DNA of 64,000 nucleotides from Patescibacteria group bacterium. GTDB lineage: Bacteria; Patescibacteriota; Patescibacteriia; PEXW01. The notes beneath the pieces are model-generated. The model did no database searches. It was given only the letters and a program-made list of their open reading frames with translations, and was not told where the DNA came from. The DNA lies in assembly GCA_041671325.1 (NCBI GenBank), contig JBAZBR010000003.1:68506-132505 (forward strand), in the 5' to 3' direction. Below are positions 11,739 through 64,000 of the stretch, one piece after another; within the stretch, counting starts at the first letter, position 1, and every line of letters begins with the position of its first letter. Position numbers and translations under genes: made by a program.

Positions 11739-11841
11739 CCCCGCACCACTTTCTATAATAATCATTTATATAATTTCAATATATTCAGCAAAATAACAAC
11801 TTTAATAATTTGTCTATATTTGATTAGAAAGTGGTGCGGGG
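11739..11841. repeat. inverted-repeat element family 'CCCGCACCACTTTC', copy 1
   Basis: Perfect 15-bp terminal inverted repeats, CCCCGCACCACTTTC and GAAAGTGGTGCGGGG, flank about 73 nt of AT-rich sequence. It lies in the divergent nusA / ORF11923 intergenic region. Confidence 0.6.
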
Positions 11842-25604: not shown

Positions 25605-25850
25605 CGCGTCATTGCGAGCGACGGGTTTCGTGTGGCAACATTTGTTGCCCCACTGCACCCTCTGCTCGCATGCCGCTTTCCCCACGCGCCAGTTCCGCCG
25701 CGTGGGGCCCCCAGGAAGATTTTCGTTCGTGTGCCGCTTTTCCTCACGAATGCGTGCTCCTCCCCCTCGACTCCGCTCGGGGTCGTGCGATCCACATTCG
25801 TGAGGTCAGGTTTCACAAACGTGCCGTTTTCCCAAAAAATATATGCAAAT
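25605..25850 (+). repeat. tRNA-trailer structured element, copy U1
   Basis: CGCGTCATTGCGAGCGACGGGTTTCGTGTG, then hairpin GGCAACATTTGTTGCC, then CCACTGCACCCTCTG-CTCGCATGCCGCTTTCCCC. Further modules end in GTGTGCCGCTTTTCC and GTGCCGTTTTCCC. About 60% GC against a background near 40%. Confidence 0.55.
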
Positions 25851-26546: not shown

Positions 26547-26673
26547 CCCGCACTACTCACTTCGTTCGAGTGCGAGGGCAGGCAGAGGCAAGTCTGTATC
26601 TCTTGTAAAAAACCACAAAGGTAAGTTTAATTTTCAATTATCATTTATAATATTGAGTAATGCTGTGCATGGG

Positions 26674-26748
26674 GGTGGCCATGGTGTAGTGGTAACACAG
26701 AGGCTTGTGGAGCCTTTATCTCGGGTTCGATCCCCGATGGCCACCCCC
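26674..26748 (+). tRNA. tRNA-His(GTG) with genomically encoded G-1
   Basis: Hand fold. G-1 opposite discriminator C73, acceptor GTGGCCA/TGGCCAC, anticodon loop TTGTGGA, T-loop TTCGATC, CCA encoded. Confidence 0.75.
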
Positions 26749-27135
26749 ATGCACAGCAACCAAAACATATGGTTCGGGTTGGGAATAACAGCAGATCCTC
26801 GAGAACAAAATAAAAGTAAAAAACGAGACCCCGCCCAAGTGGCGGGGCCGATGGCCACCCCAAGGTGGTTGCCACCGCAGGGAATATCAGAGGCTTGCCT
26901 GTCCCGTACTTGAGCCTCGCGAATAGTACGGGATGGAGCCCCCGAACCACCTTGGGTTCGGGGCATGCTTTATCTCGGGTTCTCCGCCACAAAAAAAATA
27001 ATGCGGATCCCCCGCCTACCGAAGCCTCGTGCGGCGGGCAGGCGCCGGATGGCGGGAGATCCCCCAGCCTCACCCGACGAGCGTGCGAGTCAAGGCGGGC
27101 GATGGCCACCCCAAGGTGGTATTCTATGATATAGA
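26749..27135 (+). repeat. GC-rich mosaic of tRNA-His fragments
   Basis: The 3'-end copy CCGATGGCCACCCCAAGGTGG occurs at about 26848 and about 27099. An internal copy at 26888..26982, CAGAGGCTTG-[70-nt insert]-CTTTATCTCGGGTTC, reproduces the anticodon-to-T-arm region with an insertion. About 60% GC. The track ORFs here are judged spurious. Confidence 0.5.
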
Positions 27136-27576
27136 CAAATTATCAAATTAAATGTGCAATTATGAACAATATATTTGTTTGGATTATATTATGTGCGGTA
27201 AGTCTAATATTAGGAATATTAAGTTATGTTGCCGCATATAGAAGGGGAGTTGGAGACATAAAGAATCACCCCAAGATTTTCAGGTTTTTTGAAATATATC
27301 GCCATTTTGTCGGTTACTTTTTTTCAGCAGTTATTGGTTATTATTTTATTAAAGTAAGATGGCCCTACATACATCAAACGGCAGTACTTTCTCTCGGCGA
27401 TTTTATTTTAGGAATTGCATTCCTTTTTGGCGTTTTAGGCTGGTGGCCGTATTTAATCAAAAATATTACTGAGGGAGTGGAAGCTATTATTAATAAACGG
27501 TTAGGAAAATAATTGATTTATTACCTGAATAATAATTTTAAAATTATGTGCGAGTCAAGGCGGGCGATGGCCACCC
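27083..27576 (+). mobile_element. small cassette bounded by a perfect 30-bp direct repeat derived from the tRNA-His 3' end
   Basis: GTGCGAGTCAAGGCGGGCGATGGCCACCCC occurs at 27083..27112 and 27547..27576 and flanks ORF 27162..27512. Confidence 0.5.
27162..27512 (+). CDS. small membrane protein (cassette cargo)
   Basis: 116 aa with 3 TM helices, very AT-rich, flanked by the 30-bp direct repeats. Confidence 0.4.
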   Translation: MNNIFVWIILCAVSLILGILSYVAAYRRGVGDIKNHPKIFRFFEIYRHFVGYFFSAVIGYYFIKVRWPYIHQTAVLSLGDFILGIAFLFGVLGWWPYLIKNITEGVEAIINKRLGK

Positions 27577-38376: not shown

Positions 38377-39480
38377 ATGCAAAATAAGTATATTATTAAT
38401 TATTTTATAAGTCCACATAATTTGAGCTATACTGAGGTTATGCAGAAAAAAGGAGGATTTACCCAGCACCACTTTTCGTTAAAACGCTATAATCATAGCA
38501 AAAGACTTTTATTGGAAAGTGGTGCTGGGTTTACCTTAATTGAGGCTTTGATAACCATTTCAATTTTTGGCATTGCCGCAGTGGTTTTGGGTTCAGCTTT
38601 GGTGAATATCCGCCTTAATAGGGCTAATCGCTCGGATGCTGCCTCGGGGTTTTTGGCGCAGTCCGAAATTGAAGCAGTCAGATCCCTGCCCTTTGGAGAA
38701 ATAACCAACCAGACTAACGGGTCTTTTCGGAATGTGCTTTTTCAGCAAGGAACTTGGGCAGTTGCGAGTCATGCTTTTGCACCTTCGGGGAATCAAGTTA
38801 TTGAATTAACAGGAAGTGGGACAGGCGATATAAGCGGTCTGGCAATTGTACCAGCCGGGAGCGGTATTACTGATGGCAGTATTGTGGCTTATATGAATGT
38901 CAGGAATGAAAGTCCCAGTAATTGGCAGGCGGGTTTTTTGTTCCGGGCCAAAGACCGAGAAAATTCCTATCGGGTTTGGTATTCCAGCAGTCAAATTAAA
39001 GTTCAAAAAGTCGTGGCTGGTACAGTAACGGATATTTATTCTCGTAACCAAGCTTTTTTAAAAAATACCTGGTATAAGCTTGAAATCGTTTTAGCCACCA
39101 GCAGTATAAACGTAAAGCTGAATGATATCCCCTTAACCGGTATGCCAATTACCGATTTAACTTTTACAAAAGGGGCGGTTGCGCTTTTTGGGTCTAATGG
39201 CGCCAGTTTGGATGTCGATTCATTAAGCGTGGTCCAAGGCGCCAATACCCTTAGTTGGAATTTTGATTCTGGTGAAACCCTTGGCAATTTACCAATTGGT
39301 TGGGAAAGGTTTGGGGTTTATGATTTGCCCCAAGGTACGGCAGTCTTAAGTATTACCGATGCGGAAGTTGGTTTTACGGATATTAAGAAAATTACAGTTC
39401 AGGTTGGTTATACAATCGACAGCGGCACCCGCACCCAAACCATAGAAACTTTAATTTCCCAAGGAGGGATAGCCCAATGA
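38377..39480 (+). CDS. type IV pilin-like protein (prepilin-type N-terminus) with a large C-terminal domain
   Basis: Prepilin cleavage/methylation motif G|FTLIEALITISIFGIAA. The true start may be the internal Met at about 38437. Confidence 0.6.
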   Translation: MQNKYIINYFISPHNLSYTEVMQKKGGFTQHHFSLKRYNHSKRLLLESGAGFTLIEALITISIFGIAAVVLGSALVNIRLNRANRSDAASGFLAQSEIEAVRSLPFGEITNQTNGSFRNVLFQQGTWAVASHAFAPSGNQVIELTGSGTGDISGLAIVPAGSGITDGSIVAYMNVRNESPSNWQAGFLFRAKDRENSYRVWYSSSQIKVQKVVAGTVTDIYSRNQAFLKNTWYKLEIVLATSSINVKLNDIPLTGMPITDLTFTKGAVALFGSNGASLDVDSLSVVQGANTLSWNFDSGETLGNLPIGWERFGVYDLPQGTAVLSITDAEVGFTDIKKITVQVGYTIDSGTRTQTIETLISQGGIAQ

Positions 39481-47319: not shown

Positions 47320-47423
47320 TCCCGCACCACTTTCCATAGCAAGGTTGGGTAATAGATTAAATATTCATCTAGGAGAAATATCTTTCGTCTTGACCTTAGA
47401 TATTGTTGGAAAGTGGTGCGGGA
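47320..47423. repeat. inverted-repeat element family 'CCCGCACCACTTTC', copy 2
   Basis: Perfect 17-bp terminal inverted repeat TCCCGCACCACTTTCCA / TGGAAAGTGGTGCGGGA flanking 70 nt. It lies in the divergent region upstream of pilT. Confidence 0.6.
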
Positions 47424-48858: not shown

Positions 48859-49090
48859 CGCGTCATCACGTGCGACGGGTTTCGTGTGGCAACATTTGTT
48901 GCCCCACTGCACCCTTTGCACGCGTGCCGCTCTCCGTGCGAAGCCTCGCTTAACCACAGAAACGCGTACTCCTTCGCTTTACTCAGTCCGTTCCTCGTTT
49001 CTGTGGCGTTTCGAGTTTTTTCCGTGCGTTCCTCATTTATGAGGTAGGTTCCGTTCGCGTGCCGCTCTCCCCAAATTTGTTTTCAACAAA
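48859..49090 (+). repeat. tRNA-trailer structured element, copy U2
   Basis: CGCGTCATCACGTGCGACGGGTTTCGTGTG, then hairpin GGCAACATTTGTTGCC, then CCACTGCACCCTTTGCACGCGTGCCGCTCTCC. A second module ends CGCGTGCCGCTCTCCCC and is followed by the hairpin CCCCAAATTTGTT..AACAAATTTGGG. Confidence 0.55.
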
Positions 49091-49606: not shown

Positions 49607-49790
49607 CGCGTCATCGCGAGCGGCGGGTTTCGTGTGCCCCGCCCTGGCGGGACCCACTGCACCCTTTGTTCGCGTGCCGCTATCCCCAATTTTTAATAAA
49701 AAATTGGGGACCCCACGAGACATTAGCTTTCACAGGTGTGCCGCTTTTCCCACGCGCCAGTTCCGTCGCGTGGGGCTCCTGAATATACAA
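49607..49790 (+). repeat. tRNA-trailer structured element, copy U3 (displaced from tRNA-Lys by the GIY-YIG insertion)
   Basis: CGCGTCATCGCGAGCGGCGGGTTTCGTGTG, then a different hairpin CCCCGCCCTGGCGGG at the same position as GGCAACATTTGTTGCC in U1 and U2, then CCACTGCACCCTTTGTTCGCGTGCCGCTATCCCC. Further modules are GTGTGCCGCTTTTCCC and ACGCGCCAGTTCCGTCGCGTGGGGC, which are shared with U1. Confidence 0.55.
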
Positions 49791-53391: not shown

Positions 53392-53678
53392 AGTTTTTTC
53401 CTGATTTATTAAAGGTCGCTATTGAGGCGGCCTTTTTCATTTTCTAAAAATTTTCATTAAAAAAATCATCCAGCGCCGGCAGGGACACCGGCGCTGGAAA
53501 AATCTTTAAATTCGTTAGGAAGGAGGCAGGATTGCCACGTCCCCTTCGGCTCCTCCTCGACAAGCTCGGAGTCGCTTTGCTCCTCCTCGCAATGACAGAA
53601 TAACCTCGCAAGGAAATAGAAAGATTGTAAAATACTCCCTCTCCCTTTGGGAGAGGGTCCACGAAGTGGGAGTGAGGG

Positions 53679-54020
53679 TTACTCGGAAATTAATTGACTA
53701 ATCTTTTCTAAGACCGCCTCAGGATTTTTCTGTAAATCATTAGCCCAAATGCGAATCACTTTATAGCCACATTCTTTAAGATAAGCATTTCTTTGTTTAT
53801 CTTTGGTTATTTGGGATGGATTAGCATGTCCGCTTCCATCTAATTCGATTATCAACTTCTTTTCCCGACAACAAAAATCAGTAATATATCTGCCGATTGG
53901 GAATTGACGGTGAAACTTCAGACCTGAGAAATGCCTATTACGCAAATAAAACCATAATTTTAATTCATGGGGGTTCTGTAATTTTCTTTGTCTTCTAGCT
54001 AGTGGAGTAAGTTTCTTCAT
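53679..54020 (-). CDS. DUF559 / Vsr-like endonuclease-domain protein
   Basis: RQRKLQNP.E..LW..LR...F.G.KF.RQ..IG.YI.DF.C....L.IE.DG..H pattern. It is flanked by CCCTCTCC..GGAGAGGG palindromes. Confidence 0.65.
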   Translation of the reverse strand: MKKLTPLARRQRKLQNPHELKLWFYLRNRHFSGLKFHRQFPIGRYITDFCCREKKLIIELDGSGHANPSQITKDKQRNAYLKECGYKVIRIWANDLQKNPEAVLEKISQLISE

Positions 54021-54082: not shown

Positions 54083-55624
54083 TTACCTCGCGTACTCTAT
54101 AACCCGGCGTTCTCTTATTACCGTAACCTTGATTTCGCCAGGATACTGCAGTTCCTTTTCAATGTTATTGGCGATTTCCTTAGCCATTTTCATGGCGGTA
54201 TAGTCATCAATTTTTTCTGGGGAGACAAAGACCCGGATTTCCCGGCCAGCCTGGATGGCATAAGCCTTTTCCACGCCTTCAAAGCCTGTGGCGACTTTTT
54301 CCAAGTCTTCCAATCTTTGGATGTATTGTTCAATAGAGTCTTTGCGGGCGCCGGGACGGGAGCCAGAAATGGCGTCAGCCACTTTGACAATGACTGCTTC
54401 CAAAGTCTTGGGCTGGTCTTCATGGTGGCCAATGCACATGTAGGCGATTTCTTCAGGGATCTTGAATTTTCTTCGCAGAACATCGTAACCGATTTCCGTA
54501 TGCGTGCCCTGGATATCATGGTCTAAAGCCTTGCCGATGTCGTGCAATAAGCCGCCGCGCTTGCAGACGCTGACATTGGCACCGAGCTCTTCAGCTAACA
54601 AGCCAGCCAAATTTGAAACCTCAATGGAATGTTGGAGAACATTTTGGCCGTAAGAAGTCCGGTATTTTAATCGGCCCAAAAGCATTAACAATTTCGGGTC
54701 CATGCCCGCCAAACCCACTTCATAAGCCGCGTCTTCGCCGGCTTTTTTCATATCCTTGGCAATTTCTTTTTTGGCTTCATCCACATATTCCTCAATGCGG
54801 CCGGGATGGATGCGGCCATCAGCCATTAAATGATCCAAAGCTTTTTTGGCCACTTGCCGGCGGACTGGCGAAAAGCCGGAAACAATAATTGATTCCGGGG
54901 TTTCGTCGACAATCACTTCAACCCCAGTCAGTAATTCCAAAGTCTTGATATTCCGGTCTTCTTTACCGATTATTCGGCCTTTCATTTCTTCATTAGGCAG
55001 GTTGACAATCGTAGTCGTGGTTTCCGCCGTATGCGGGGAAGCCACTTTTTGGATAGCCAGACTGATCAAGTTCTTGGCCTGCTTTTCCATTTCTTCGCCG
55101 GATTCTTCCTGGAATTTCTTGATCCTTTGCAAAAGTTCGTCCTTCATGTCCCGTTCTGTGGCATCTAAAAGCACGCGCTTGGCTTCTTCCTTGGTTAGGC
55201 CCGCGATTTTTTCCAATTTTGCCACTTGCAGTTCCCGAATTTTTTCCAATTCAGTGCGGATGTTATCCATCCGATTTTCCTTGTCCTTCAGGCTCACCTG
55301 CTGTTTTTCCAATTGCATTAATTTTTGGTCAAAGGCGTTTTCACGTTTTTCCAGCCTTTCCTGCAAACTGTCAATCTGTTTGCGCCGCGCGCTATCTTCA
55401 TTCTTGGCTTCTTCAATCAATTTTAAAGCTTTCTCTTTGGCACCAAAGAGAATATCTTTTTCTTTTTGCCTGGCTTCATCCAAGGCCTTTTGCAGCCTTG
55501 ATTCAGCGCCTTCAAGTTGCTTGGCAGCCCATACTTTGCGAGCAAAATAGCCAACAAGGATGCCGCCGATCGTGCCGACGGGCAGGAAACCCAGCCAAAA
55601 CCAAATAGAGAGGGAATTGTCCAT
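54083..55624 (-). CDS. rny: ribonuclease Y
   Basis: N-terminal TM helix, coiled coil, KH domain (IGKEDRNIKTLE) and HD domain (LLHDIGKA). 513 aa. Confidence 0.85.
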   Translation of the reverse strand: MDNSLSIWFWLGFLPVGTIGGILVGYFARKVWAAKQLEGAESRLQKALDEARQKEKDILFGAKEKALKLIEEAKNEDSARRKQIDSLQERLEKRENAFDQKLMQLEKQQVSLKDKENRMDNIRTELEKIRELQVAKLEKIAGLTKEEAKRVLLDATERDMKDELLQRIKKFQEESGEEMEKQAKNLISLAIQKVASPHTAETTTTIVNLPNEEMKGRIIGKEDRNIKTLELLTGVEVIVDETPESIIVSGFSPVRRQVAKKALDHLMADGRIHPGRIEEYVDEAKKEIAKDMKKAGEDAAYEVGLAGMDPKLLMLLGRLKYRTSYGQNVLQHSIEVSNLAGLLAEELGANVSVCKRGGLLHDIGKALDHDIQGTHTEIGYDVLRRKFKIPEEIAYMCIGHHEDQPKTLEAVIVKVADAISGSRPGARKDSIEQYIQRLEDLEKVATGFEGVEKAYAIQAGREIRVFVSPEKIDDYTAMKMAKEIANNIEKELQYPGEIKVTVIRERRVIEYAR

Positions 55625-55766
55625 AAAAATTGTAGGATTTTAATTTCATAAGGGGTGTAACAAACTTCGACAAATTTATTGAAAAATTTAAGTTAGTTAG
55701 CAAAAATTAATCTACCATAATTGAATTGGGGGAGTAAAGGGAGGGGCGTCATAAACAAGCCACTTT

Positions 55767-55868
55767 TGTCATTTCGAGCGAAGCGAAGCGAAGTCGAGAA
55801 ATCTCGTTTTATTCAACTTAGATTCCTCGGTTCACCCCACCAAATGGTGTGGCTCACTCGGAATGACA
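55767..55868. repeat. GTCATYCTGA palindromic element (MITE-like), copy
   Basis: Terminal inverted repeats TGTCATTTCGAGCGAAGCGAAG and CTCACTCGGAATGACA. About 102 nt, upstream of clpP. Confidence 0.55.
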
Positions 55869-55875
55869 AGAAAGT

Positions 55876-56460
55876 TTAAGAGGCTTTATTGATTATCTTA
55901 TCAATAATGCCGTATTTCTTGGCTTCTTCCGCAGACATGAACTTGTCCCGATCGCTGTCATCTTCGATTTTTTTGATGGTTTGATTAGTGTGGTGGGCCA
56001 AAATCTGGTTGATCCGGTCCTTGATTTTCAAGATATGTTCGGCGCGGATCTTGATGTCCGAAGCCTGGCCTTCGGTGCCGCCCATGACTTGGTGGATGAG
56101 GATTTCCGAATTCGGCAAAGCGAACCTTTTGCCTTTAGCCCCGCCTGCCAGAAGTACGGCGCCCATGCTGGAGGCCATGCCTACGCAAATGGTGCTGACA
56201 TCAGGCTTGACGTATTGCATGGTGTCATAGACTGCCATGCCAGCCGTGACTGAACCGCCCGGAGTGTTGATGTAGATCTTGATGTCTTTTTCCTTGTCCT
56301 GGTTTTCCAAGAACAAAAGCTGGGCAATGACTGTGTTGGCCACAGCATCATCAATCATTTCGCCCAAAAAGATGATGCGGTCTTTTAAAAGCCGGGAATA
56401 AATGTCATAGGCCCGTTCGCCAAAATTGGATTTTTCAATAACAGTTGGGACTAAATACAT
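55876..56460 (-). CDS. clpP: ATP-dependent Clp protease proteolytic subunit
   Basis: Catalytic triad context GMASSMGA (Ser), H and D. 194 aa. Confidence 0.9.
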
Positions 56461-56555
56461 AAGGGTAATTTCTAGTTAATTTTATGGAGTTTTTAGGGCA
56501 ATAAGTTATAGCCCTGTTTTTAGGTTATATAAGTAAAAGGGGTTTTGGTCAAGAG

Positions 56556-57447
56556 TTAATTTAATTTGGGTATACCTAGTCAAATGGAACAGGCTTGAGC
56601 GAGATTGATAAGTAGTTATAGGGTGAATCAAATATTTCGGGATGGCTAAATCTTAAGGTAAATTCAGCCACTAATTCCGGCAGGTAATCTGGAGTGACAT
56701 GGTGATACATTCTTCTAATAAAGGTTCTTAAATTGCCGAATAATCCTTCAATCTCTGAGGTTAAGCCAAACTCAAAACTTCTATGTATATCGACTTGATG
56801 TCTAACTTGCCACCAGCGGTTAATACCTTTGTAGATGGCTGAACCATCAGTTTGCAAGCAACTTTTAGGTTCAACGGTTTGGAAGATAAATTGACTCGCC
56901 TCTTGTTTGTCGACTGAGTTTTTGAAAATAACTTGGTGGGCTAGATTTTTAGAGCCAGCTTGTTTAGCCATCAAAAGGGAAAGATCTTTAAAGTAGGCTT
57001 CATCCATTTGAATCTGACCATTTAAAATCGGCTCAAATTGGGGTAAATGGAGCCTAAAGATCCTAAACCAATGTCTAACTGTCATTTCGCTTAAGTGGCA
57101 AAGTTTTTGAGTTTGGAGTACAGGAATCTTTTGAGTCCAACACCAAAGTAAAGCATAAAAGGTGCGTAAGTTTAGTTTTAGGCTTCTAAGCCAAGTGCCA
57201 GACAAGAGGCTAAAAGGTTGACGACAATTTCGGCAACGATATCGATTTTCTGATAAGTAGACCCGTCTTTGGTGACAACGGGGACAAAAGAGATGGCTGC
57301 CAAATATTATTCTTCTAAGCTTCTTTAGAATTTGAGCTTCTGAAGGGAGCTGTTTTAAGAGGGCAATCATATGTAACGCAAGGTTAATGATAGTTAAAGT
57401 CAGCTTAACCTTGTTCCAAATGGTTTAGTATACCCTTTAATTTACCC
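56556..57447 (-). mobile_element. IS1595-family insertion sequence (boundaries approximate)
   Basis: Imperfect terminal inverted repeats around AATTTAATTTGGGTATACC (left) and GGTATACTAAACC..AATT (right) bracket the transposase gene. Confidence 0.45.
56576..57370 (-). CDS. IS1595-family (ISXO2-like) DDE transposase
   Basis: N-terminal zinc ribbon CPRC...CRNC. DDE region IQMDEAYF ... QTDGSAIYKG. Confidence 0.7.
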   Translation of the reverse strand: MIALLKQLPSEAQILKKLRRIIFGSHLFCPRCHQRRVYLSENRYRCRNCRQPFSLLSGTWLRSLKLNLRTFYALLWCWTQKIPVLQTQKLCHLSEMTVRHWFRIFRLHLPQFEPILNGQIQMDEAYFKDLSLLMAKQAGSKNLAHQVIFKNSVDKQEASQFIFQTVEPKSCLQTDGSAIYKGINRWWQVRHQVDIHRSFEFGLTSEIEGLFGNLRTFIRRMYHHVTPDYLPELVAEFTLRFSHPEIFDSPYNYLSISLKPVPFD

Positions 57448-57558
57448 TTGACAAATTTTGTATTTGTGCTATGCTAATCTGTTTTCTGCAAATAAAAAGA
57501 AAAATAGCAAAAGTTGAAAAAACAATAACTGATTAATTTTACACAAAGGAGTGTCTGT

Positions 57559-59454
57559 ATGTGGTTACTTATGGTACTGCTCGGAACCATTAATCCGAAC
57601 TTCCAGCAGCTGAAGGATGGAAACGTTGGTCGTTACATCGGGATGACCATTTTACGAGCTTTTGTTTCCTTGATGTTGGTCGGTCTGGTCCAGTTTTATT
57701 TCGTGTTGCCGGCGATGTACTGGCCGAAATACCTCTGGGTCATTTTCTTTCCGATTTTATGGAACTGCATCATCACCTGGATCGAGATCATGGATGATAA
57801 CGATACCATCGTACCAGCCGGAGTCCTCACGGTGATTTTGGCGATACTGCTGGTCGTATCGATGGTGGTCGGCATATCCCCGTACACCAATACCGAAGCG
57901 AATCTTCGGCCATTGATGAACATCAAGATTGCGGACAATCTGCCGTCTGAACAACAGGATAAGCTTGACCTGAACCATATTTTGTCAGTTCCGCCGGAAA
58001 TGGCCAGTTGGAAAGCCAATAAGGTCATCAGCGGCGGTGGAAAGAATTATGGCGCTTTTTTCCAAGTCGGGACTCTGGAACTTCAGAAAATCCAGGGACG
58101 TCAGATGTATGCCGCCCCGTTGATCTATAACGGGTTCATGGCGTGGTGGCGGTCAGACGGGACACCGGGTTTTGTCCTGGTGGATGCGGAAGATCCAAAC
58201 CTGGATGCGCGGTTGGTCATCCTCGACCAGCCGATGAAATATTTGCCAGAGGGCAACTTCGGCGACAACCTGGAGCGGTACCTGTACAATCGCGGTTACA
58301 GCGATTATACCCAGTACGAACAGGTGTTCGAGGTCAACGACAGTCTGAGGCCGTATTATGTCGTGACGCTGACGAAGTTTTCGAGCGGTTTTACCGGCGA
58401 GGTCGTGGAAAAAGTATTGCTGGTCGACCCGATTACCGGCAGTATCCAGTCGTTTGTACCGGGCACCACACCGCAATGGGTTGACCGCGCATTTCCACGC
58501 GCGTTAGCCACCCAATATGCGGAATGGTGGGGTCAGTACATTCATGGGTGGTGGAACCAGTTCATCGGAGGAAGCAAGGATGTCCTGAAACCGGTAGGCG
58601 GGGTAATACTCGTCTATGGAAATTCAGAACACCCGGATTTCTTTATCCAGATGACCAGCCACACCGAAAATGATCAGTCGCTGGTCGGATATTTCCTGTT
58701 CAATAGCCATCTCAACGAGGCGATGTATTACGTCATCGGGGCCGGGACAGGAAAGAGTTACGGCCACAGTGCGTCCGTCGAAACTCTGGTTGAGGCCAGG
58801 GAAGAGGTGACGACTCCGAAGTTCCACACCAGTTTTATCACGTATTATCCCAATCTGTACGGGGAACCCACCTGGGTCGTGCCGATCATCTCGCCGAACC
58901 ATTTGGTGGAGAAAATTGCATTCGTTCATGCTCCGAATTCCCAGGCCTCAAACGCCGTGGCAATCGGGAACAACAAGACCGAAGCGCTTTCCGCCTATTT
59001 GGAACTGTTGGCCAGGGTCCGGTCTGAGTCAATCGGTAAAGTACCGACTGACCAGGCGAACCTGATGGTCGCCAGCGGTCCGGTCTCGCGGATCGGCATG
59101 GTGCCACTCACCGATGGGATACGGTATTTCATCGAATTGAACGACATGCCGAACCGGATTTTCCAGGTGCCGCCCGGCACTACACCGGGAATCCTAGCCA
59201 TGACCCGTGAAAAAGACATTGTTCGTCTCCAGTACCTTGACACGAAAGAAGGGGTACTGAGCGTCCAGCAATTCATCAATACGCGGTATGCCAACCTCAC
59301 AGTAAGTCCGGAACAAAAGACTTATGATGAACAGGTGACCGAACAGCGAGGCACGGAAAAGGATAAAGCGGAATACCTTGAGCTTCTGAAAAACCAGAAA
59401 AGGCTTGATGAGCTCAGGAAGAAGTTTGGGGAGACTGTTACCCCCGACAAGTAG
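57559..59454 (+). CDS. hypothetical membrane-anchored protein (GC-rich, next to the IS)
   Basis: 631 aa. Four N-terminal TM helices, then a large soluble domain. GC content is well above the genome background. Confidence 0.45.
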   Translation: MWLLMVLLGTINPNFQQLKDGNVGRYIGMTILRAFVSLMLVGLVQFYFVLPAMYWPKYLWVIFFPILWNCIITWIEIMDDNDTIVPAGVLTVILAILLVVSMVVGISPYTNTEANLRPLMNIKIADNLPSEQQDKLDLNHILSVPPEMASWKANKVISGGGKNYGAFFQVGTLELQKIQGRQMYAAPLIYNGFMAWWRSDGTPGFVLVDAEDPNLDARLVILDQPMKYLPEGNFGDNLERYLYNRGYSDYTQYEQVFEVNDSLRPYYVVTLTKFSSGFTGEVVEKVLLVDPITGSIQSFVPGTTPQWVDRAFPRALATQYAEWWGQYIHGWWNQFIGGSKDVLKPVGGVILVYGNSEHPDFFIQMTSHTENDQSLVGYFLFNSHLNEAMYYVIGAGTGKSYGHSASVETLVEAREEVTTPKFHTSFITYYPNLYGEPTWVVPIISPNHLVEKIAFVHAPNSQASNAVAIGNNKTEALSAYLELLARVRSESIGKVPTDQANLMVASGPVSRIGMVPLTDGIRYFIELNDMPNRIFQVPPGTTPGILAMTREKDIVRLQYLDTKEGVLSVQQFINTRYANLTVSPEQKTYDEQVTEQRGTEKDKAEYLELLKNQKRLDELRKKFGETVTPDK

Positions 59455-59535
59455 TAATGTTTATTCTGACTTGATTTTGCTCTTGGGTGCAACCAACCGT
59501 GGTTGCACCCTATTTTTTTGATACTTAAAATTTAA

Positions 59536-60510
59536 TTAAACTGACTCTATTCTCCAACCAGTTGGTGTATGAATTAACTTGCCTGGCACGGAAAAGCCCG
59601 CGGCTTTTTTGTGGCCGCCGCCGCCGAATTTTTGGGCAAGTTCGGAAACATCTACGTCTTCGTGTGTGGTTCTTAAACTGACTTTTACAAAACCGCTTGA
59701 ATCCTCTTTTAAAACCATGATGATTTTGGCATCCTGCAGAGCATTCAAGAAATTGGAAATGCCTTCCAAATCTTCATCCGTGGCTTCGCATTCGGTTAAG
59801 TCAGTTTGGGTTAAAACCGTACTGACCACGCCATCCGCATGCCTAGTTAATCTATCCAAAGCCCGGCCCCATAATTTAAGAGTGTTAACCGTCTTATTCC
59901 TGACCGTAAAATTGGTGATAGTCCGGAATTTTGCACCTAAGCCTAAAAGCTTGCCGGCAATTTCCATGGAAGATTGGGTGGTACCCAGATTTGAAAACCC
60001 GCCTGTATCAGTCAAAATGCCGGTCAAAATGCAAGTGGCCATGTCTTTGGTTATTTGGATTTGCTGGCTATCAAAAAACTGGTAAACCAATTCCGAAGCC
60101 GAAGAAGCAGTTGGTTCAACTAGGTTGATTTTCCCAAAACCTGGATTAGTGGGATGATGGTCAATATTAATAATTATTGGCTCACCTTTAATTTTTTCCA
60201 ATAAATGCCCGACGCCCGAATATGACAAACTGGAAGAATCTATAAAAATCACCAGATCAAAAGGGATACGGATGATTTCCTCATCCGTATATAAAAGGTG
60301 TTCCCAAAGCGGCAAATAGCGCAAATGCTGGGGTACGGGATGAAGGCAGTAGAAATGGAAGTGTTTGCCAATGTCCCTCAGCCAATTTGCCATAGCCAGA
60401 TTTGCCCCCAGGGTGTCGCCATCCGGTTTTTGGTGGGCAATCAGCAGGATTTCCTCCGCCTGGTCAATGGCCTTTTTGATTGTTTCGAAAGTTTGAAGTT
60501 TGTCTGACAT
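59536..60510 (-). CDS. nrnA: DHH-family phosphoesterase (NrnA-like nanoRNase / pAp phosphatase)
   Basis: DHH motifs HQKPDGDTLG and NIDHH, plus the DHHA1 motif GGGH. 324 aa. Confidence 0.8.
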   Translation of the reverse strand: MSDKLQTFETIKKAIDQAEEILLIAHQKPDGDTLGANLAMANWLRDIGKHFHFYCLHPVPQHLRYLPLWEHLLYTDEEIIRIPFDLVIFIDSSSLSYSGVGHLLEKIKGEPIIINIDHHPTNPGFGKINLVEPTASSASELVYQFFDSQQIQITKDMATCILTGILTDTGGFSNLGTTQSSMEIAGKLLGLGAKFRTITNFTVRNKTVNTLKLWGRALDRLTRHADGVVSTVLTQTDLTECEATDEDLEGISNFLNALQDAKIIMVLKEDSSGFVKVSLRTTHEDVDVSELAQKFGGGGHKKAAGFSVPGKLIHTPTGWRIESV

Positions 60511-60556
60511 AAATTAAATAGCTGGGTAGTATAAGCTAACCAGTTGGGTGCGTCAA

Positions 60557-60663
60557 GCCCCGCACCACTTTTCATCAAAATCCAGAACCTAAAAGCAGGC
60601 TTTTTAGTCGGTATTAATATCTAACTAATTTACTTAACCTTTTTATGAAAAGTGGTGCGGGGC
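60557..60663. repeat. inverted-repeat element family 'CCCGCACCACTTTC', copy 3
   Basis: Perfect 19-bp terminal inverted repeat GCCCCGCACCACTTTTCAT / ATGAAAAGTGGTGCGGGGC flanking 69 nt, upstream of nrnA. Confidence 0.6.
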
Positions 60664-60717
60664 CAAGGGCTGGGGAGGTTTGGTTTTGGATCGTGAAAAT
60701 AATCCGTCGCAATGAGG

Positions 60718-61188
60718 TTATTTTCCCTTAATTCTTTTTTCCTCCTCAAATTTTTCTAAAGCAGTATTAAATTTATCATTGGCGGCATTAACTTCCAAAA
60801 TTAAATGGTCAATAATCCCATTGAATAGGTTTGAATTTTTTTCATCAGGCCAAAGCTTCCTATCCTTTAAACTGGAAGCAATGTCCTGGCCTCTTCTTTG
60901 CCCGAATTCCAAAACATTGACCATGGCCAAGTTAAGCCGGCTAATTAATTTTGATTTATCTTCGTTGGGTAAATTTTCTTCATCAAGAATCTTTAATAAT
61001 TCTTCATAAGTTTCATAATAACCACTAATCACAATCTCTTTGGCTATTCGAATATCATCTTCCCCATACAAACCATTAGTCTGGCGGATTTGCGATTCCC
61101 AATCAGCAAAAAATTTTTCCCGATCCCAAGGTCGGCCAGGCATTTCATCGCTAATAGTCGAAATTTCTCGTCCTTCGAATTGGGTCAT
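60718..61188 (-). CDS. hypothetical protein
   Basis: 156 aa, all-alpha and acidic. Confidence 0.35.
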   Translation of the reverse strand: MTQFEGREISTISDEMPGRPWDREKFFADWESQIRQTNGLYGEDDIRIAKEIVISGYYETYEELLKILDEENLPNEDKSKLISRLNLAMVNVLEFGQRRGQDIASSLKDRKLWPDEKNSNLFNGIIDHLILEVNAANDKFNTALEKFEEEKRIKGK

Positions 61189-61201
61189 AAGAAAACAATA
61201 A

Positions 61202-61558
61202 TTAATTTACCAACTTTTCTTCCCTTCTAACCTTATCTAATAACGCCTCGATTTTTTGGGCCTTTCTTTCCCGCACATCAATGACAAAATGCAATGAAGG
61301 GATTCTTTGTAGGACCAAAGTCTTCATCAATTCATGCTGGAGAAAAGGCAGGCGTTTTTTTATTAAAGCCAAGGCTCCGGCTCCGTATTCATCGGGAATA
61401 ACCGAAAGGAAAATTTTAGCATGGCGGATATCACCCGTGGTTTCCACGCGGATAATGCTGACTAAAGCCGGTGGCGGGAAATTAAATTCAGTTAAAAAAA
61501 TTTCTCCAAGTTTTTGCTGGAGCAGGGAATTTAATTGGTTGATGCGTTTTGAGGGCAT
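61202..61558 (-). CDS. rbfA: ribosome-binding factor A
   Basis: R..R..E.I..E...F....V.I..VE.T.D...A.IF pattern. Downstream of infB, as in the canonical operon. Confidence 0.8.
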   Translation of the reverse strand: MPSKRINQLNSLLQQKLGEIFLTEFNFPPPALVSIIRVETTGDIRHAKIFLSVIPDEYGAGALALIKKRLPFLQHELMKTLVLQRIPSLHFVIDVRERKAQKIEALLDKVRREEKLVN

Positions 61559-61566
61559 AAATGTTT

Positions 61567-61671
61567 TGTCATCCTGACGACCTGACCATGGACAGGGAGG
61601 AAGGATCTTTATAAGGATTGAATATTTATGAAGATTCTTCGTCCTCGATCAGGCTCGGACTCAGAATGACA
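61567..61671. repeat. GTCATYCTGA palindromic element (MITE-like), copy
   Basis: TTGTCATCCTGACGACCTGACC...GTCCTCGATCAGGCTCGGACTCAGAATGACAG. It starts 9 nt upstream of the rbfA start codon. Confidence 0.6.
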
Positions 61672-61686
61672 GAAAAAGTTAGTTCT

Positions 61687-62076
61687 TTAGACGCCTTTCA
61701 CCTTGATCCAACTAAGTTTCTGCCATTTGATTAGTTCCTCGGAATAAGGCAAGCCTTTGGGGATGGGGTTAAGGCAAAGTATTTTAATATGTTTATATAA
61801 GGTCAAGTTTAAGCCAATGGCAAAGGCAATTTCCGCAAAAACGCTGGGGCCAATATAATTCGAAACCCCTGATTTTTTAAGATTTAAAACAAACACCTCA
61901 TCAGTCTTAGTAATAGCCTTATAAAAATTTGAGTGTAGTTTTTTGTAATTCAAGCCGACTTTGTTGTTAAATTTTGGATATGCCAAAACTTTATAACCTT
62001 TATTCTCTAAATTTTCTTTCCAGTCAATAGCCTCTTTATAAAAAGACGTACTAGCCGATATAACTACTTTTTTCAT
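61687..62076 (-). CDS. nucleoside 2-deoxyribosyltransferase-like (Nuc_deoxyrib_tr/YtoQ-like) protein
   Basis: N-terminal KKVVISASTSFY (like KIYLAGP.F) and C-terminal SVFAEIAFAIG (like GTAFEIGYA) with a conserved Glu. 129 aa. Flanked by two copies of the MITE-like element. Confidence 0.35.
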   Translation of the reverse strand: MKKVVISASTSFYKEAIDWKENLENKGYKVLAYPKFNNKVGLNYKKLHSNFYKAITKTDEVFVLNLKKSGVSNYIGPSVFAEIAFAIGLNLTLYKHIKILCLNPIPKGLPYSEELIKWQKLSWIKVKGV

Positions 62077-62084
62077 ATGATTAT

Positions 62085-62224
62085 TGTCATCCTGACGACC
62101 TGCCTATGAGCAGGGAGGAAGGATCTTAATAAGGCTAAAATTTATAAAGATTCTCCCGCCTACCTTCGCCAGACGAAGTTCGGCGGGCAGGTCGTCCTCG
62201 ATCAGACTCGGATTCAGAATGACA
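62085..62224. repeat. GTCATYCTGA palindromic element (MITE-like), longer variant
   Basis: Same termini as the 61567 copy, in the same orientation, with an internal 30-nt insertion. It lies between the infB stop and the start of the 62076 gene. Confidence 0.6.
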
Positions 62225-62230
62225 GGGATG

Positions 62231-63997
62231 TTAATTTTCTAACTTCCTCGGGACTAATTTTTCTTCTACGAAAACCAAGGTATCACCTTCTTGTAAACCG
62301 TTTACGCCAACCAATTTCAAACCGCATTCGTCATTCAGGCCGACTTCGCCGACATTTTGTTTATTTTTCTGTAATTGTTCCAAATTAACTTGGCCTAAAA
62401 CTTTATTATTCCGAAAAGCCCTAACTTTGGCTTTGGCTTTAATAGTACCTTCTGTAACCTTAGCGCCGAGAATCGTGTTCTTGCCTTCAGCCCGGAAAAT
62501 TTTCAAGATCCTGGCTTGGCCAATAGCTTCTTCCACGATATCTGCGCCTAGTCTTTCTTCCAAACCTTTTTTAATATCATCTAAAAGTTCATAAATTACC
62601 GTATAGGTTTTGACTTTAGCTTTGGTATTGGCAACGGCTTTTTGGTTGGCGCTGACATTAAAGCCAATCAGCCAGGCGCCAGCTTGTTCCGCGCGCAAGA
62701 CATCCGCTTCATTAATATCGCCCAAAGCTTGGCCCACAACTTCTGGCCGCACTTCTTTGAAAGTGAAAGTTTTCAAGCTTTCCAAAATGGCTTCCAAAGA
62801 ACCAACCTTGTCGGCTTTCAAAAATAACGGAAGTTTTTTGGCTTCACCATCAATACCTTTGCCCGCAATAACCGAAGCGGTTTTGGCTGATTCCCGAGCT
62901 TTTATCTGCATCAATCTTAAAGTCGCCTCTTGTTGTTTCATTAATTTCCTGGCAGCCTTTTCGTTTTCCGGCGCTTCCAAAACATCACCCACGGCTGGCG
63001 CGGCTTTCAGACCTAAAATAACCACAGGCATGGAAGGCGGGGCATGCTGGGTCATTTGCCCATTCCAATCTTTCAAACTTTTTACTTTGCCAATGACCGA
63101 GCCTGCGGCAATAAAATCCCCGACATTTAAGGTGCCGTTTTGGATTAAGATAGTTGCCACTGGGCCTTCGCCTGGATCAACATGGGATTCAATGACCGTG
63201 CCCACGAGTTTGCCTTTGGGATTGGCCATAAGCAGGTCTTTTTCCATGTCCGCGACCAGTAAAATTGATTCCAGCAAATCATCAATGCCTTTGCCTGACT
63301 TGGCTGAAACGCCCACGGTAATAACTTTACCGCCCCAATCTTCGGGTTGCAGGTTGATGGAAGCCAATTCAGTTTTGACTTTTTCCAAACCAGCGCCTTC
63401 CTTGTCAATTTTATTAATGGCCACCACAAAAGGGATTTTGGTACGTTCGATAATATTCAAAGCTTCGCGAGTTTGGGGTTTGATGCCGTCATCCGCGGCA
63501 ATCACCAAAATACAGACATCGGCAATATTCGCGCCGCGGGAACGCATGGCCGTGAAAGCTTCATGGCCGGGCGTATCTATAAAGGTGATCGCGCGCCCCG
63601 CGCGGTCATCCCGAGTCCCTCGAGGGATCCCTCCCTCGCTTTCGCTCTGTCGGGATGATTGTTCCTCCATTGTCGGAACAATCACCTGGTAAGCGCCAAT
63701 ATGCTGGGTAATGCCGCCGTGTTCTTTGCCTGCGACATTGGTTTTACGGATGACATCCAACAAGCTGGTTTTGCCATGGTCAACATGGCCCATGACCACG
63801 ACGACTGGCGGCCGAGGAGTGGTTCTGTCTTTATCAGCCGAAATAATTTCCGAAACTTTTTTCGCCAAGTCAGTTTCCCTTTCCGAAGTGGTTTTTTCTT
63901 TTTGCGGTTTTATTTCCGCGCCAAAATCCGAACCGACAATAGAGGCCGTATCAAAATCAATTTCTTCGTTTAAAGTCGCCAGAATTCCATTCTTCAT
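62231..63997 (-). CDS. infB: translation initiation factor IF-2, carrying an in-frame palindromic insertion in the G domain. The N-terminus may extend beyond the window.
   Basis: G1 GHVDHGKTSLLD, G3 DTPGH, G4 NKID, and a C-terminal beta-barrel. About 24 extra residues sit between AYQV and ITFIDTPGH compared with other IF-2 proteins. Confidence 0.85.
   Translation of the reverse strand: MKNGILATLNEEIDFDTASIVGSDFGAEIKPQKEKTTSERETDLAKKVSEIISADKDRTTPRPPVVVVMGHVDHGKTSLLDVIRKTNVAGKEHGGITQHIGAYQVIVPTMEEQSSRQSESEGGIPRGTRDDRAGRAITFIDTPGHEAFTAMRSRGANIADVCILVIAADDGIKPQTREALNIIERTKIPFVVAINKIDKEGAGLEKVKTELASINLQPEDWGGKVITVGVSAKSGKGIDDLLESILLVADMEKDLLMANPKGKLVGTVIESHVDPGEGPVATILIQNGTLNVGDFIAAGSVIGKVKSLKDWNGQMTQHAPPSMPVVILGLKAAPAVGDVLEAPENEKAARKLMKQQEATLRLMQIKARESAKTASVIAGKGIDGEAKKLPLFLKADKVGSLEAILESLKTFTFKEVRPEVVGQALGDINEADVLRAEQAGAWLIGFNVSANQKAVANTKAKVKTYTVIYELLDDIKKGLEERLGADIVEEAIGQARILKIFRAEGKNTILGAKVTEGTIKAKAKVRAFRNNKVLGQVNLEQLQKNKQNVGEVGLNDECGLKLVGVNGLQEGDTLVFVEEKLVPRKLEN
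63591..63683 (-). repeat. palindromic element of the GTCATYCTGA family inserted in frame within infB
   Basis: TCATCCCGACAGAGCGAAAGCGAGGGAGGGATCCCTCGAGGGACTCGGGATGA (minus strand), plus the hairpin GTTCC-TCCATTGTC-GGAAC. It encodes IVPTMEEQSSRQSESEGGIPRGTRDDRAGRA. Local GC is about 65%. Confidence 0.55.
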
Positions 63998-64000
63998 TAG

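Follow-up and report, generated by a model that had tools for sequence, protein, structure and literature searches.

A translated cluster of DNA palindromes in the IF-2 gene of a Patescibacteria genome and its patchy occurrence at one site among relatives

Palindromic repeats that are read in frame have been described in Rickettsia and a few other bacteria, where they are regarded as passive 'selfish DNA in genes'. The Rickettsia palindromic elements (RPEs) are palindromic repeats that lie in frame in essential genes, encode a hydrophilic surface peptide and leave function intact (Ogata et al. 2000 and 2002, as summarised in PMC10969869 and PMC3733652), and in-frame RPEs have been documented as such (PMC10969869). 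RPE-4 and RPE-6 are members of the CGTC-tagged REP superfamily, whose units carry an unpaired terminal tag (CGTC, TGTC or CCTC), an 8–9 bp stem starting with A/T and a loop of 4–5 nt, and occur mostly as head-to-head dimers in high copy number (PMC3733652); intragenic REP dimers or groups that encode 20–30 amino acids are also on record (Di Nocera, De Gregorio and Rocco 2013, PMC3733652). In this work we analysed a 64-kb stretch of a Patescibacteria metagenome-assembled genome (the window, meaning the whole stretch) and describe a cluster of three DNA palindromes, hereafter the module, that is translated as part of translation factor IF-2, encoded by infB. Like an RPE, the module is in-frame palindromic DNA in an essential gene with a predicted surface coil as its product, and the extragenic palindromes of the window show the superfamily tag and AT-start stem of RPE-4 and RPE-6, so that the parallel with Rickettsia drawn in a sequence-only reading of this DNA is apt as a likeness of architecture. 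RPEs are scattered over many unrelated genes within a single genus. The module, in contrast, was seen in infB only; its codon position and orientation are constant throughout a phylum-level radiation, its core is invariant in nucleotides, and its presence flips between close relatives. We regard a translated palindrome cluster of the RPE/REP-like kind as new for this lineage and gene.

The infB gene (62231–64000, minus strand) has its 588 C-terminal codons and stop in the window, where they form the minus-strand open reading frame (ORF) 62231–63997; the gene runs past the window end, which cuts off the N-terminus, and the full protein of 689 residues is found in a protein record (P0001) that is 100% identical. 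Homologue counts and the tree described below are based on the 120 best IF-2 matches, a taxon sampling skewed by the query being itself insert-bearing, and the DNA analysis covered 64 kb of this genome plus about 290 kb of sequence from its relatives. In 86 of the 120 homologues the spacing between AYQV and ITF is exactly six residues (e.g. EKNNRL); in the other 34, which have an insert at this site, it ranges from 15 to about 38. The IF-2 of the window reads AYQV-IVPTMEEQSSRQSESEGGIPRGTRDDRAGRA-ITFIDTPGH, with 31 residues in this interval. According to homologue comparison and the structure model, the 31 codons of IVPTMEEQSSRQSESEGGIPRGTRDDRAGRA (63591–63683, minus strand) stand in place of the usual 6-residue beta2–beta3 turn, a net gain of 25 codons, past the G2 threonine and ahead of the G3 motif DTPG. 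The sequence-only reading had counted about 24 extra residues between G2 and G3, in the switch region: the presence of the insert and its place after the G2 threonine and before DTPG stand, while the count is corrected to 25 and the location to the turn of the beta2–beta3 hairpin rather than simply the switch region.

The insert DNA is made of three adjacent hairpins. Hairpin A (63657–63683; GATTGTTCC / GGAACAATC) has 9 perfect pairs and encodes IVPTMEEQ. Hairpin B, the core (63605–63659; GTCATCCCGA ... TCGGGATGAT), encodes SSR...RDD; its outer arms pair perfectly over 9 pairs (TCATCCCGA at 63606–63614 with TCGGGATGA at 63650–63658), and it encloses inner palindromes (63616–63631; TCCCTCGAGGGA and GGGATCCC) that encode GGIPRG. 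Hairpin C (63587–63607; GATCGCGCG / CGCGCGGTC; 8 of 9 pairs, 3-nt loop) encodes DRAGRAI. In minimum-free-energy folds a closing stem surrounds the three hairpins (GGTGAT, 63584–63589, with ATCACC, 63681–63686), and this stem is made largely of host codons, Val on one side and Ile-Thr on the other. These hairpins and the intact ORF bear out the claim of palindromic extra codons read in frame, and the near-perfect GC-rich palindrome with an adjacent GTTCC...GGAAC hairpin is recognised in the outer pairs of B and in the 9-bp stem of A; hairpin C, as well as the nucleotide-level conservation and the patchy distribution described below, had been missed. The GC content at 63584–63686 peaks at 73%, compared with about 45% nearby. 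The fold of a 116-nt stretch is more stable than that of dinucleotide shuffles (z = -3.9 as RNA; z = -5.1 and -6.4 for the two strands as single-stranded DNA), while in empty infB alleles of relatives (those with the short turn) z is about 0. No Rfam family was found at the insert, either at gathering thresholds over the whole window or in E-value mode over 55000–64000, there was no Rfam intron match and no ORF within the 93-nt insert, and a terminator and promoter scan gave nothing that overlaps it. A tRNA-like element or ribozyme was rejected, as no Rfam or tRNA model matched, and an intein was rejected because the insert is too short. Because the DNA is palindromic, the insert also reads SSR..GIP..RDD on the plus strand; a 360-residue open frame (62610–63692, plus strand) that runs antisense across infB and the insert is most likely spurious.

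At the protein level, the insert is predicted to be a flexible surface loop. In an AlphaFold2 model of mean confidence (pLDDT) 87 it forms a coil of pLDDT 57–62 between G-domain strands 101–106 and 136–141, the remaining G domain being at about 90. A surface loop had been proposed near switch I or II; the loop is indeed predicted, but in the beta2–beta3 turn. Solved bacterial IF-2 structures align with the query in two pieces that leave residues 49–75 unmatched, whereas archaeal and eukaryotic aIF5B/eIF5B align as one piece of similar length. These proteins have extra residues between the same two G-domain strands, which shows that the site tolerates length, and the turn is evidently permissive for extra residues; palindromic DNA on the aIF5B/eIF5B side, or sequence similarity between the two loops, forms no part of this likeness.

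The module is present at the same site in many relatives. All 16 filled loci that were read as DNA (L001, L003, L084, L086, L088, L091, L094–L096 and L100–L106) agree in the codon position and orientation of the module, with the hairpins in the order A-B-C, and IF-2 genes of only about 50% identity have it in common. In about 27 more cluster representatives (clusters at 50% identity) one stretch spans the site with an insert of comparable length; about ten of these show an SSR...RDD-type motif, and the remainder have other inserts. A frame-free scan that allowed a gap of N{78,108} returned 14 loci (12 distinct), every one in frame and free of stops. That inserts are always in frame without stops indicates that the module is under translational constraint and argues against a bypassed or spliced element: unlike the translational bypass elements of T4 gene 60 and the mitochondrial byps, all infB inserts are multiples of 3 and open in the infB frame, and translational bypass was rejected on account of this strict frame constraint. 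Well-kept copies have fold z-scores of -3.9 to -7.1, the near-perfect ones being those of L094, L103, L104 and L106 (z down to -7.1, and -81 kcal/mol for 162 nt), and stems are decayed in L001, L088 and L102. Among the inserts a peptide motif recurs, VPxKxE..SSR..GIPR..RDDxAxxR, and the interior of B differs by whole blocks (RQSESEG, RESEANRG, RPKG, RAEPKASPERSEGSRG), with an interior length of about 20 to 45 residues among copies. In the inserts of P0001 and P0003 the A and C arms are nearly identical and the core is strongly different. When insert identity is set against host identity it is flat, at about 0.38 for hosts less than 70% identical (Spearman 0.05), a relation that fits transfer and saturation alike. 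A literature search with the sequence strings returned unrelated primer matches only.

Other types of insert were seen at the same position. Several other lineages of the candidate phyla radiation (L087/L089, L092/L093/L097, L090, L098 and L099) have unrelated inserts of 23–25 residues in the same IF-2 turn; the L092-type insert (ISVQVTGTRQQEDKNSKLSPVASNL) is a single long imperfect hairpin (z = -2.9). In addition, five IF-2 homologues with GAF...ITFLDTPGHAAF flanks, eukaryotic- or organellar-looking (P0144, P0154, P0175, P0198 and P0241), have Ser/Thr-rich low-complexity inserts there.

The alignments show that it is the nucleotides of the module, rather than its amino acids, that are conserved. 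Across loci the SSR codons are TCA in 9 of 9, TCC in 12 of 12 and CGA in 10 of 10 cases, the arginine of RDD is CGG in 11 of 11 and the aspartate after it GAT in 14 of 14, and GGGATCCCTCG, inside the core, is unchanged in six loci. By comparison, where the amino acid is invariant in the flanks (56 columns), the commonest codon has a mean share of only 0.57, and CGA and CGG account for 11% and 22% of the arginine codons in those flanks. The conserved residues, SSR, GIP and RDD, are exactly those of the arms and centre of the palindrome, and helix B is nearly invariant across loci, synonymous sites included. In the alignment of 14 loci, 79.7% of stem cells are standard pairs, compared with 29–44% when partners are slid by 1–3 columns, and 15 pairs are altered on both sides (A, 10 of 12; C, 4 of 9; B, 1 of 8); none of 500 shuffles matches the observed covariation score or percentage of paired cells. 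The non-Watson-Crick stem cells comprise 23 G-U and 34 A-C. There is thus no sense-strand wobble preference, and the complementarity is symmetric, as expected of a DNA palindrome and not of an mRNA structure, which points to the A and C stems reflecting DNA palindromes.

Filled alleles are scattered through almost every sub-clade of a neighbour-joining tree of the 120 IF-2 proteins built with the loop removed. The filled IF-2 of this genome (P0001) is 91% identical to an empty one (P0004) and only 85% identical to filled P0003; filled P0015 is 90% identical to empty P0102, its nearest filled relative being only 68% identical, and the filled and empty pairs P0018/P0081 and P0022/P0049 are 83% and 89% identical, respectively. 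An alignment of IF-2 from sister genomes, proposed in the sequence-only reading, thus finds the module at the same site in part of the homologues and empty alleles in close relatives. At the DNA level, the infB genes of L084 (filled) and L085 (empty) are about 87% identical overall and 88–93% identical in the 90-nt windows that flank the insert, so that no diverged recombination tract is visible at these flanks; between L003 and L002 there is only a faint, non-significant dip. Every empty allele has the six-residue turn, and because this turn is common to all of them and solved bacterial IF-2 structures likewise have no counterpart of the insert, the empty state was taken as ancestral. In some sister pairs the six-residue turn of the empty allele is like the tip of hairpin A in the filled one (TKNKKN vs ..TKEK.., in L084 vs L085 and in L001/L003 vs L002). 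The proposal that the native turn survives as the hairpin A tip was dropped: one pair is striking, but the resemblance is not significant overall (nine pairs).

Core B of the module resembles the tagged extragenic palindromes of this genome. Within the window, GTCATCCYGA (up to 1 mismatch) is found 15 times, where 3.9 are expected and none of 100 shuffles has more than 8, which substantiates the claim that termini are common to the insert and to the intergenic elements at 55767, 61567 and 62085; GTCAT termini have a background of 0.23 per 10 kb in 80 loci of random bacteria. The window contains three inverted pairs of TGTC-tagged palindromes, at 62085–62224 (between infB and the next gene; TGTCATCCTGA ... 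TCAGAATGACA), 61567–61671 and 55767–55868 (left unit TGTCATTTCGAGCGAAGCGAAGCGAAGTCGAGAAATC), and several single units. All 11 extragenic termini of the window have a TGTC or CGTC tag followed by an AT-start stem (ATCCTGA, ATTCTGA or ATTTCGAG), and the infB stem (ATCCCGAG / CTCGGGAT) also starts with AT. The left unit at 55767 can be aligned with infB cores of other genomes (L094, L095 and L104), the stem triplets differing in a compensating manner (TTT/AAA at 55767, CCC/GGG in infB). Nevertheless, only the 10-nt termini are common to the insert and the extragenic copies: no 11-mer from the insert has a second copy in the window, a single chance half-site excepted. In searches of other proteins for the insert peptide, an X-padded profile gave 73 candidates, none at E <= 10, and a 61-residue segment compared with 90% clusters matched only short IF-2 fragments without the insert; the restriction of the module to infB thus applies to the 355 kb scanned as DNA. 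The suggestion that a MITE-like copy had recently landed in infB therefore fails, as no 11-mer recurs, the module model described below matches infB only, and the same module is shared by distant IF-2 genes.

Comparison with the REP superfamily gives likenesses and differences. The window's extragenic palindromes have the (C/T)GTC tag followed by an AT-start stem of 8–9 bp, some of them form inverted pairs, their units lie between co-directional or convergent genes, and a dedicated transposase is known for neither group. The differences are that loops here are 13 nt or longer and composite, containing further palindromes, rather than 4–5 nt, and that the infB copy has the full tag at only 3 of 14 aligned loci (L094, L103 and L105; the others, including the window, have NNTC); in addition, Patescibacteria and infB are absent from the hosts listed for the superfamily (PMC3733652). 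Terminal inverted repeats occur, and on inspection no direct repeat was seen to flank the infB module or any of the three extragenic pairs.

We lean, if only slightly, towards reading the extra 25 codons as a translated RPE/REP-like cluster of three DNA palindromes that is tolerated as a surface loop and apparently preserved at the DNA level, with short, site-restricted events accounting for its gain or loss. The module would have arisen once from a REP-like palindrome; its palindromy may be kept at the DNA level by hairpin-templated repair (template switching) or by recognition by a DNA-binding enzyme, short recombination or excision events would move it into or out of infB, and IF-2 may simply tolerate the loop. 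Hairpins generated by template switching likewise have perfect stems kept complementary through two-sided changes, in a strand-symmetric manner and with selection on RNA unneeded; the published case concerns RNA genes (Monttinen and Loytynoja 2022, PMC8794818). Several observations do not fit easily with this reading of a tolerated palindrome cluster. Filled and empty alleles are related by replacement of 12–18 nt by 87–93 nt rather than by a clean insertion, no target duplication is seen at the infB module, and each switch can be read as either gain or loss. A covariance model of the module, run on both strands of 355 kb of Patescibacteria DNA, found infB matches only, unlike a dispersed repeat, and several module-bearing genomes have no extragenic GTCAT termini or palindromes within 16–22 kb. 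It is difficult to account for invariant synonymous sites in hosts of only about 50% identity unless selection or repeated renewal is assumed, and no mobilising enzyme was identified.

Part of this pattern recalls homing elements such as inteins and group I introns, which also occupy one conserved site in a conserved essential gene, with sharp borders and a patchiness that cuts across the host phylogeny. It is conceivable, though we think it unlikely, that the module is an ORF-less, site-specific 'homing' palindrome whose invariant core (TCATCCCGA...TCGGGATGA, with GGGATCCCTCG inside) is recognised by a nuclease, recombinase or single-strand transposase acting in trans; such an enzyme would copy the three-hairpin cassette into empty infB alleles, or excise it, which would account for a site and orientation that do not vary, for conserved synonymous sites and for the flips at 90% identity. 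In contrast with homing elements, however, 93 nt is too small for an endonuclease or a splicing domain, the module is translated and, as far as its sequence tells, not removed, and co-converted flanks are not seen at L084/L085. The invariant synonymous sites of the core, the covariation of the A and C stems, the fold z-scores that reach -7 and the restriction of the module to infB in the 355 kb could instead reflect a functional nucleic-acid structure, either a four-way junction in the mRNA, which would slow ribosomes or determine mRNA decay, or a regulator-binding site in the DNA, the peptide being a by-product. We give this explanation a low probability, because G-U is not favoured over A-C, close relatives do without the module, stems are decayed in three loci, and neither an Rfam family nor an overlapping terminator-like site was found.

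Selection for amino acids in a lineage-specific extension of IF-2, with incidental palindromic DNA, would account for the recurrence of the peptide motif, and a/eIF5B is likewise longer at this position. This seems improbable, since codons and not residues alone are fixed (CGA and CGG being 11% and 22% of the arginine codons in the flanks), the conserved residues coincide exactly with the arms of the palindrome, disorder is predicted for the loop, the module is missing in 90%-identical relatives, and the interior varies in length and by whole blocks. As for a local misassembly or chimera that would have joined a repeat into infB, the alternative put forward in the sequence-only reading, palindromes can in principle confuse assemblers, but no support was found for it: the identical protein is recorded in three sources and two contigs, a 210-kb ENA contig contains this DNA, and homologous inserts are present in more than 30 independent assemblies, with the reading frame kept in every case. 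We regard misassembly as excluded.

In the present case an essential translation factor has a structured cassette in its GTPase core. The cassette is found across much of Patescibacteria, its conservation is at the nucleotide level, and it has been gained or lost among near relatives. A mobile module would amount to a homing-type element that has no gene, and a selected one to a DNA or RNA structure set within infB. In both cases it offers a compact system for studying how palindromes persist within coding sequence. In practice, the module provides a presence/absence marker; it is also a pitfall for phylogenies built from alignments that include IF-2.

Other repeats and candidate enzymes were observed in the window or near infB. 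A second, unrelated palindromic repeat family with arms CCCCGCACCACTTTC / GAAAGTGGTGCGGGG about 90 nt apart is present at 11739–11841, 47321–47422 and 60558–60662, and a variant of it at 38461–38530 folds at -35 kcal/mol. A CGTC-tagged structured repeat (CGTCATYGCGAGCGRCGGGTTTCGTGTG, hairpin, CCACTGCACCCTYTGYTCGCRTGCCGC) without a match in Rfam is found at 25607–25680, 48861–48930 and 49609–49680, the first two copies beginning a few bases from the 3' end of a tRNA gene. GGGGTGGCCATCG occurs five times at 26672–27567, beside a tRNA (26675–26745), with very stable GC-rich hairpins at 26901–27070. With respect to enzymes, an IS1595-type DDE transposase gene lies at 56576–57370, genes for a large serine recombinase and helix–turn–helix proteins lie 3–5 kb upstream of infB on the same contig, past the window end (L003:4993–7065), and 23S_rRNA_IVP/bAvd-type genes lie near infB or ribosomal protein genes in two relatives (L103:18047–18409 and L106:4367–4753). 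Finally, a DUF559/MTES_1575 nuclease-like ORF of 113 residues on the minus strand has a TGTC-tagged palindrome just beyond its 3' end (53679–54020 and 53530–53597, respectively), and it is a possible candidate partner of the palindromes.

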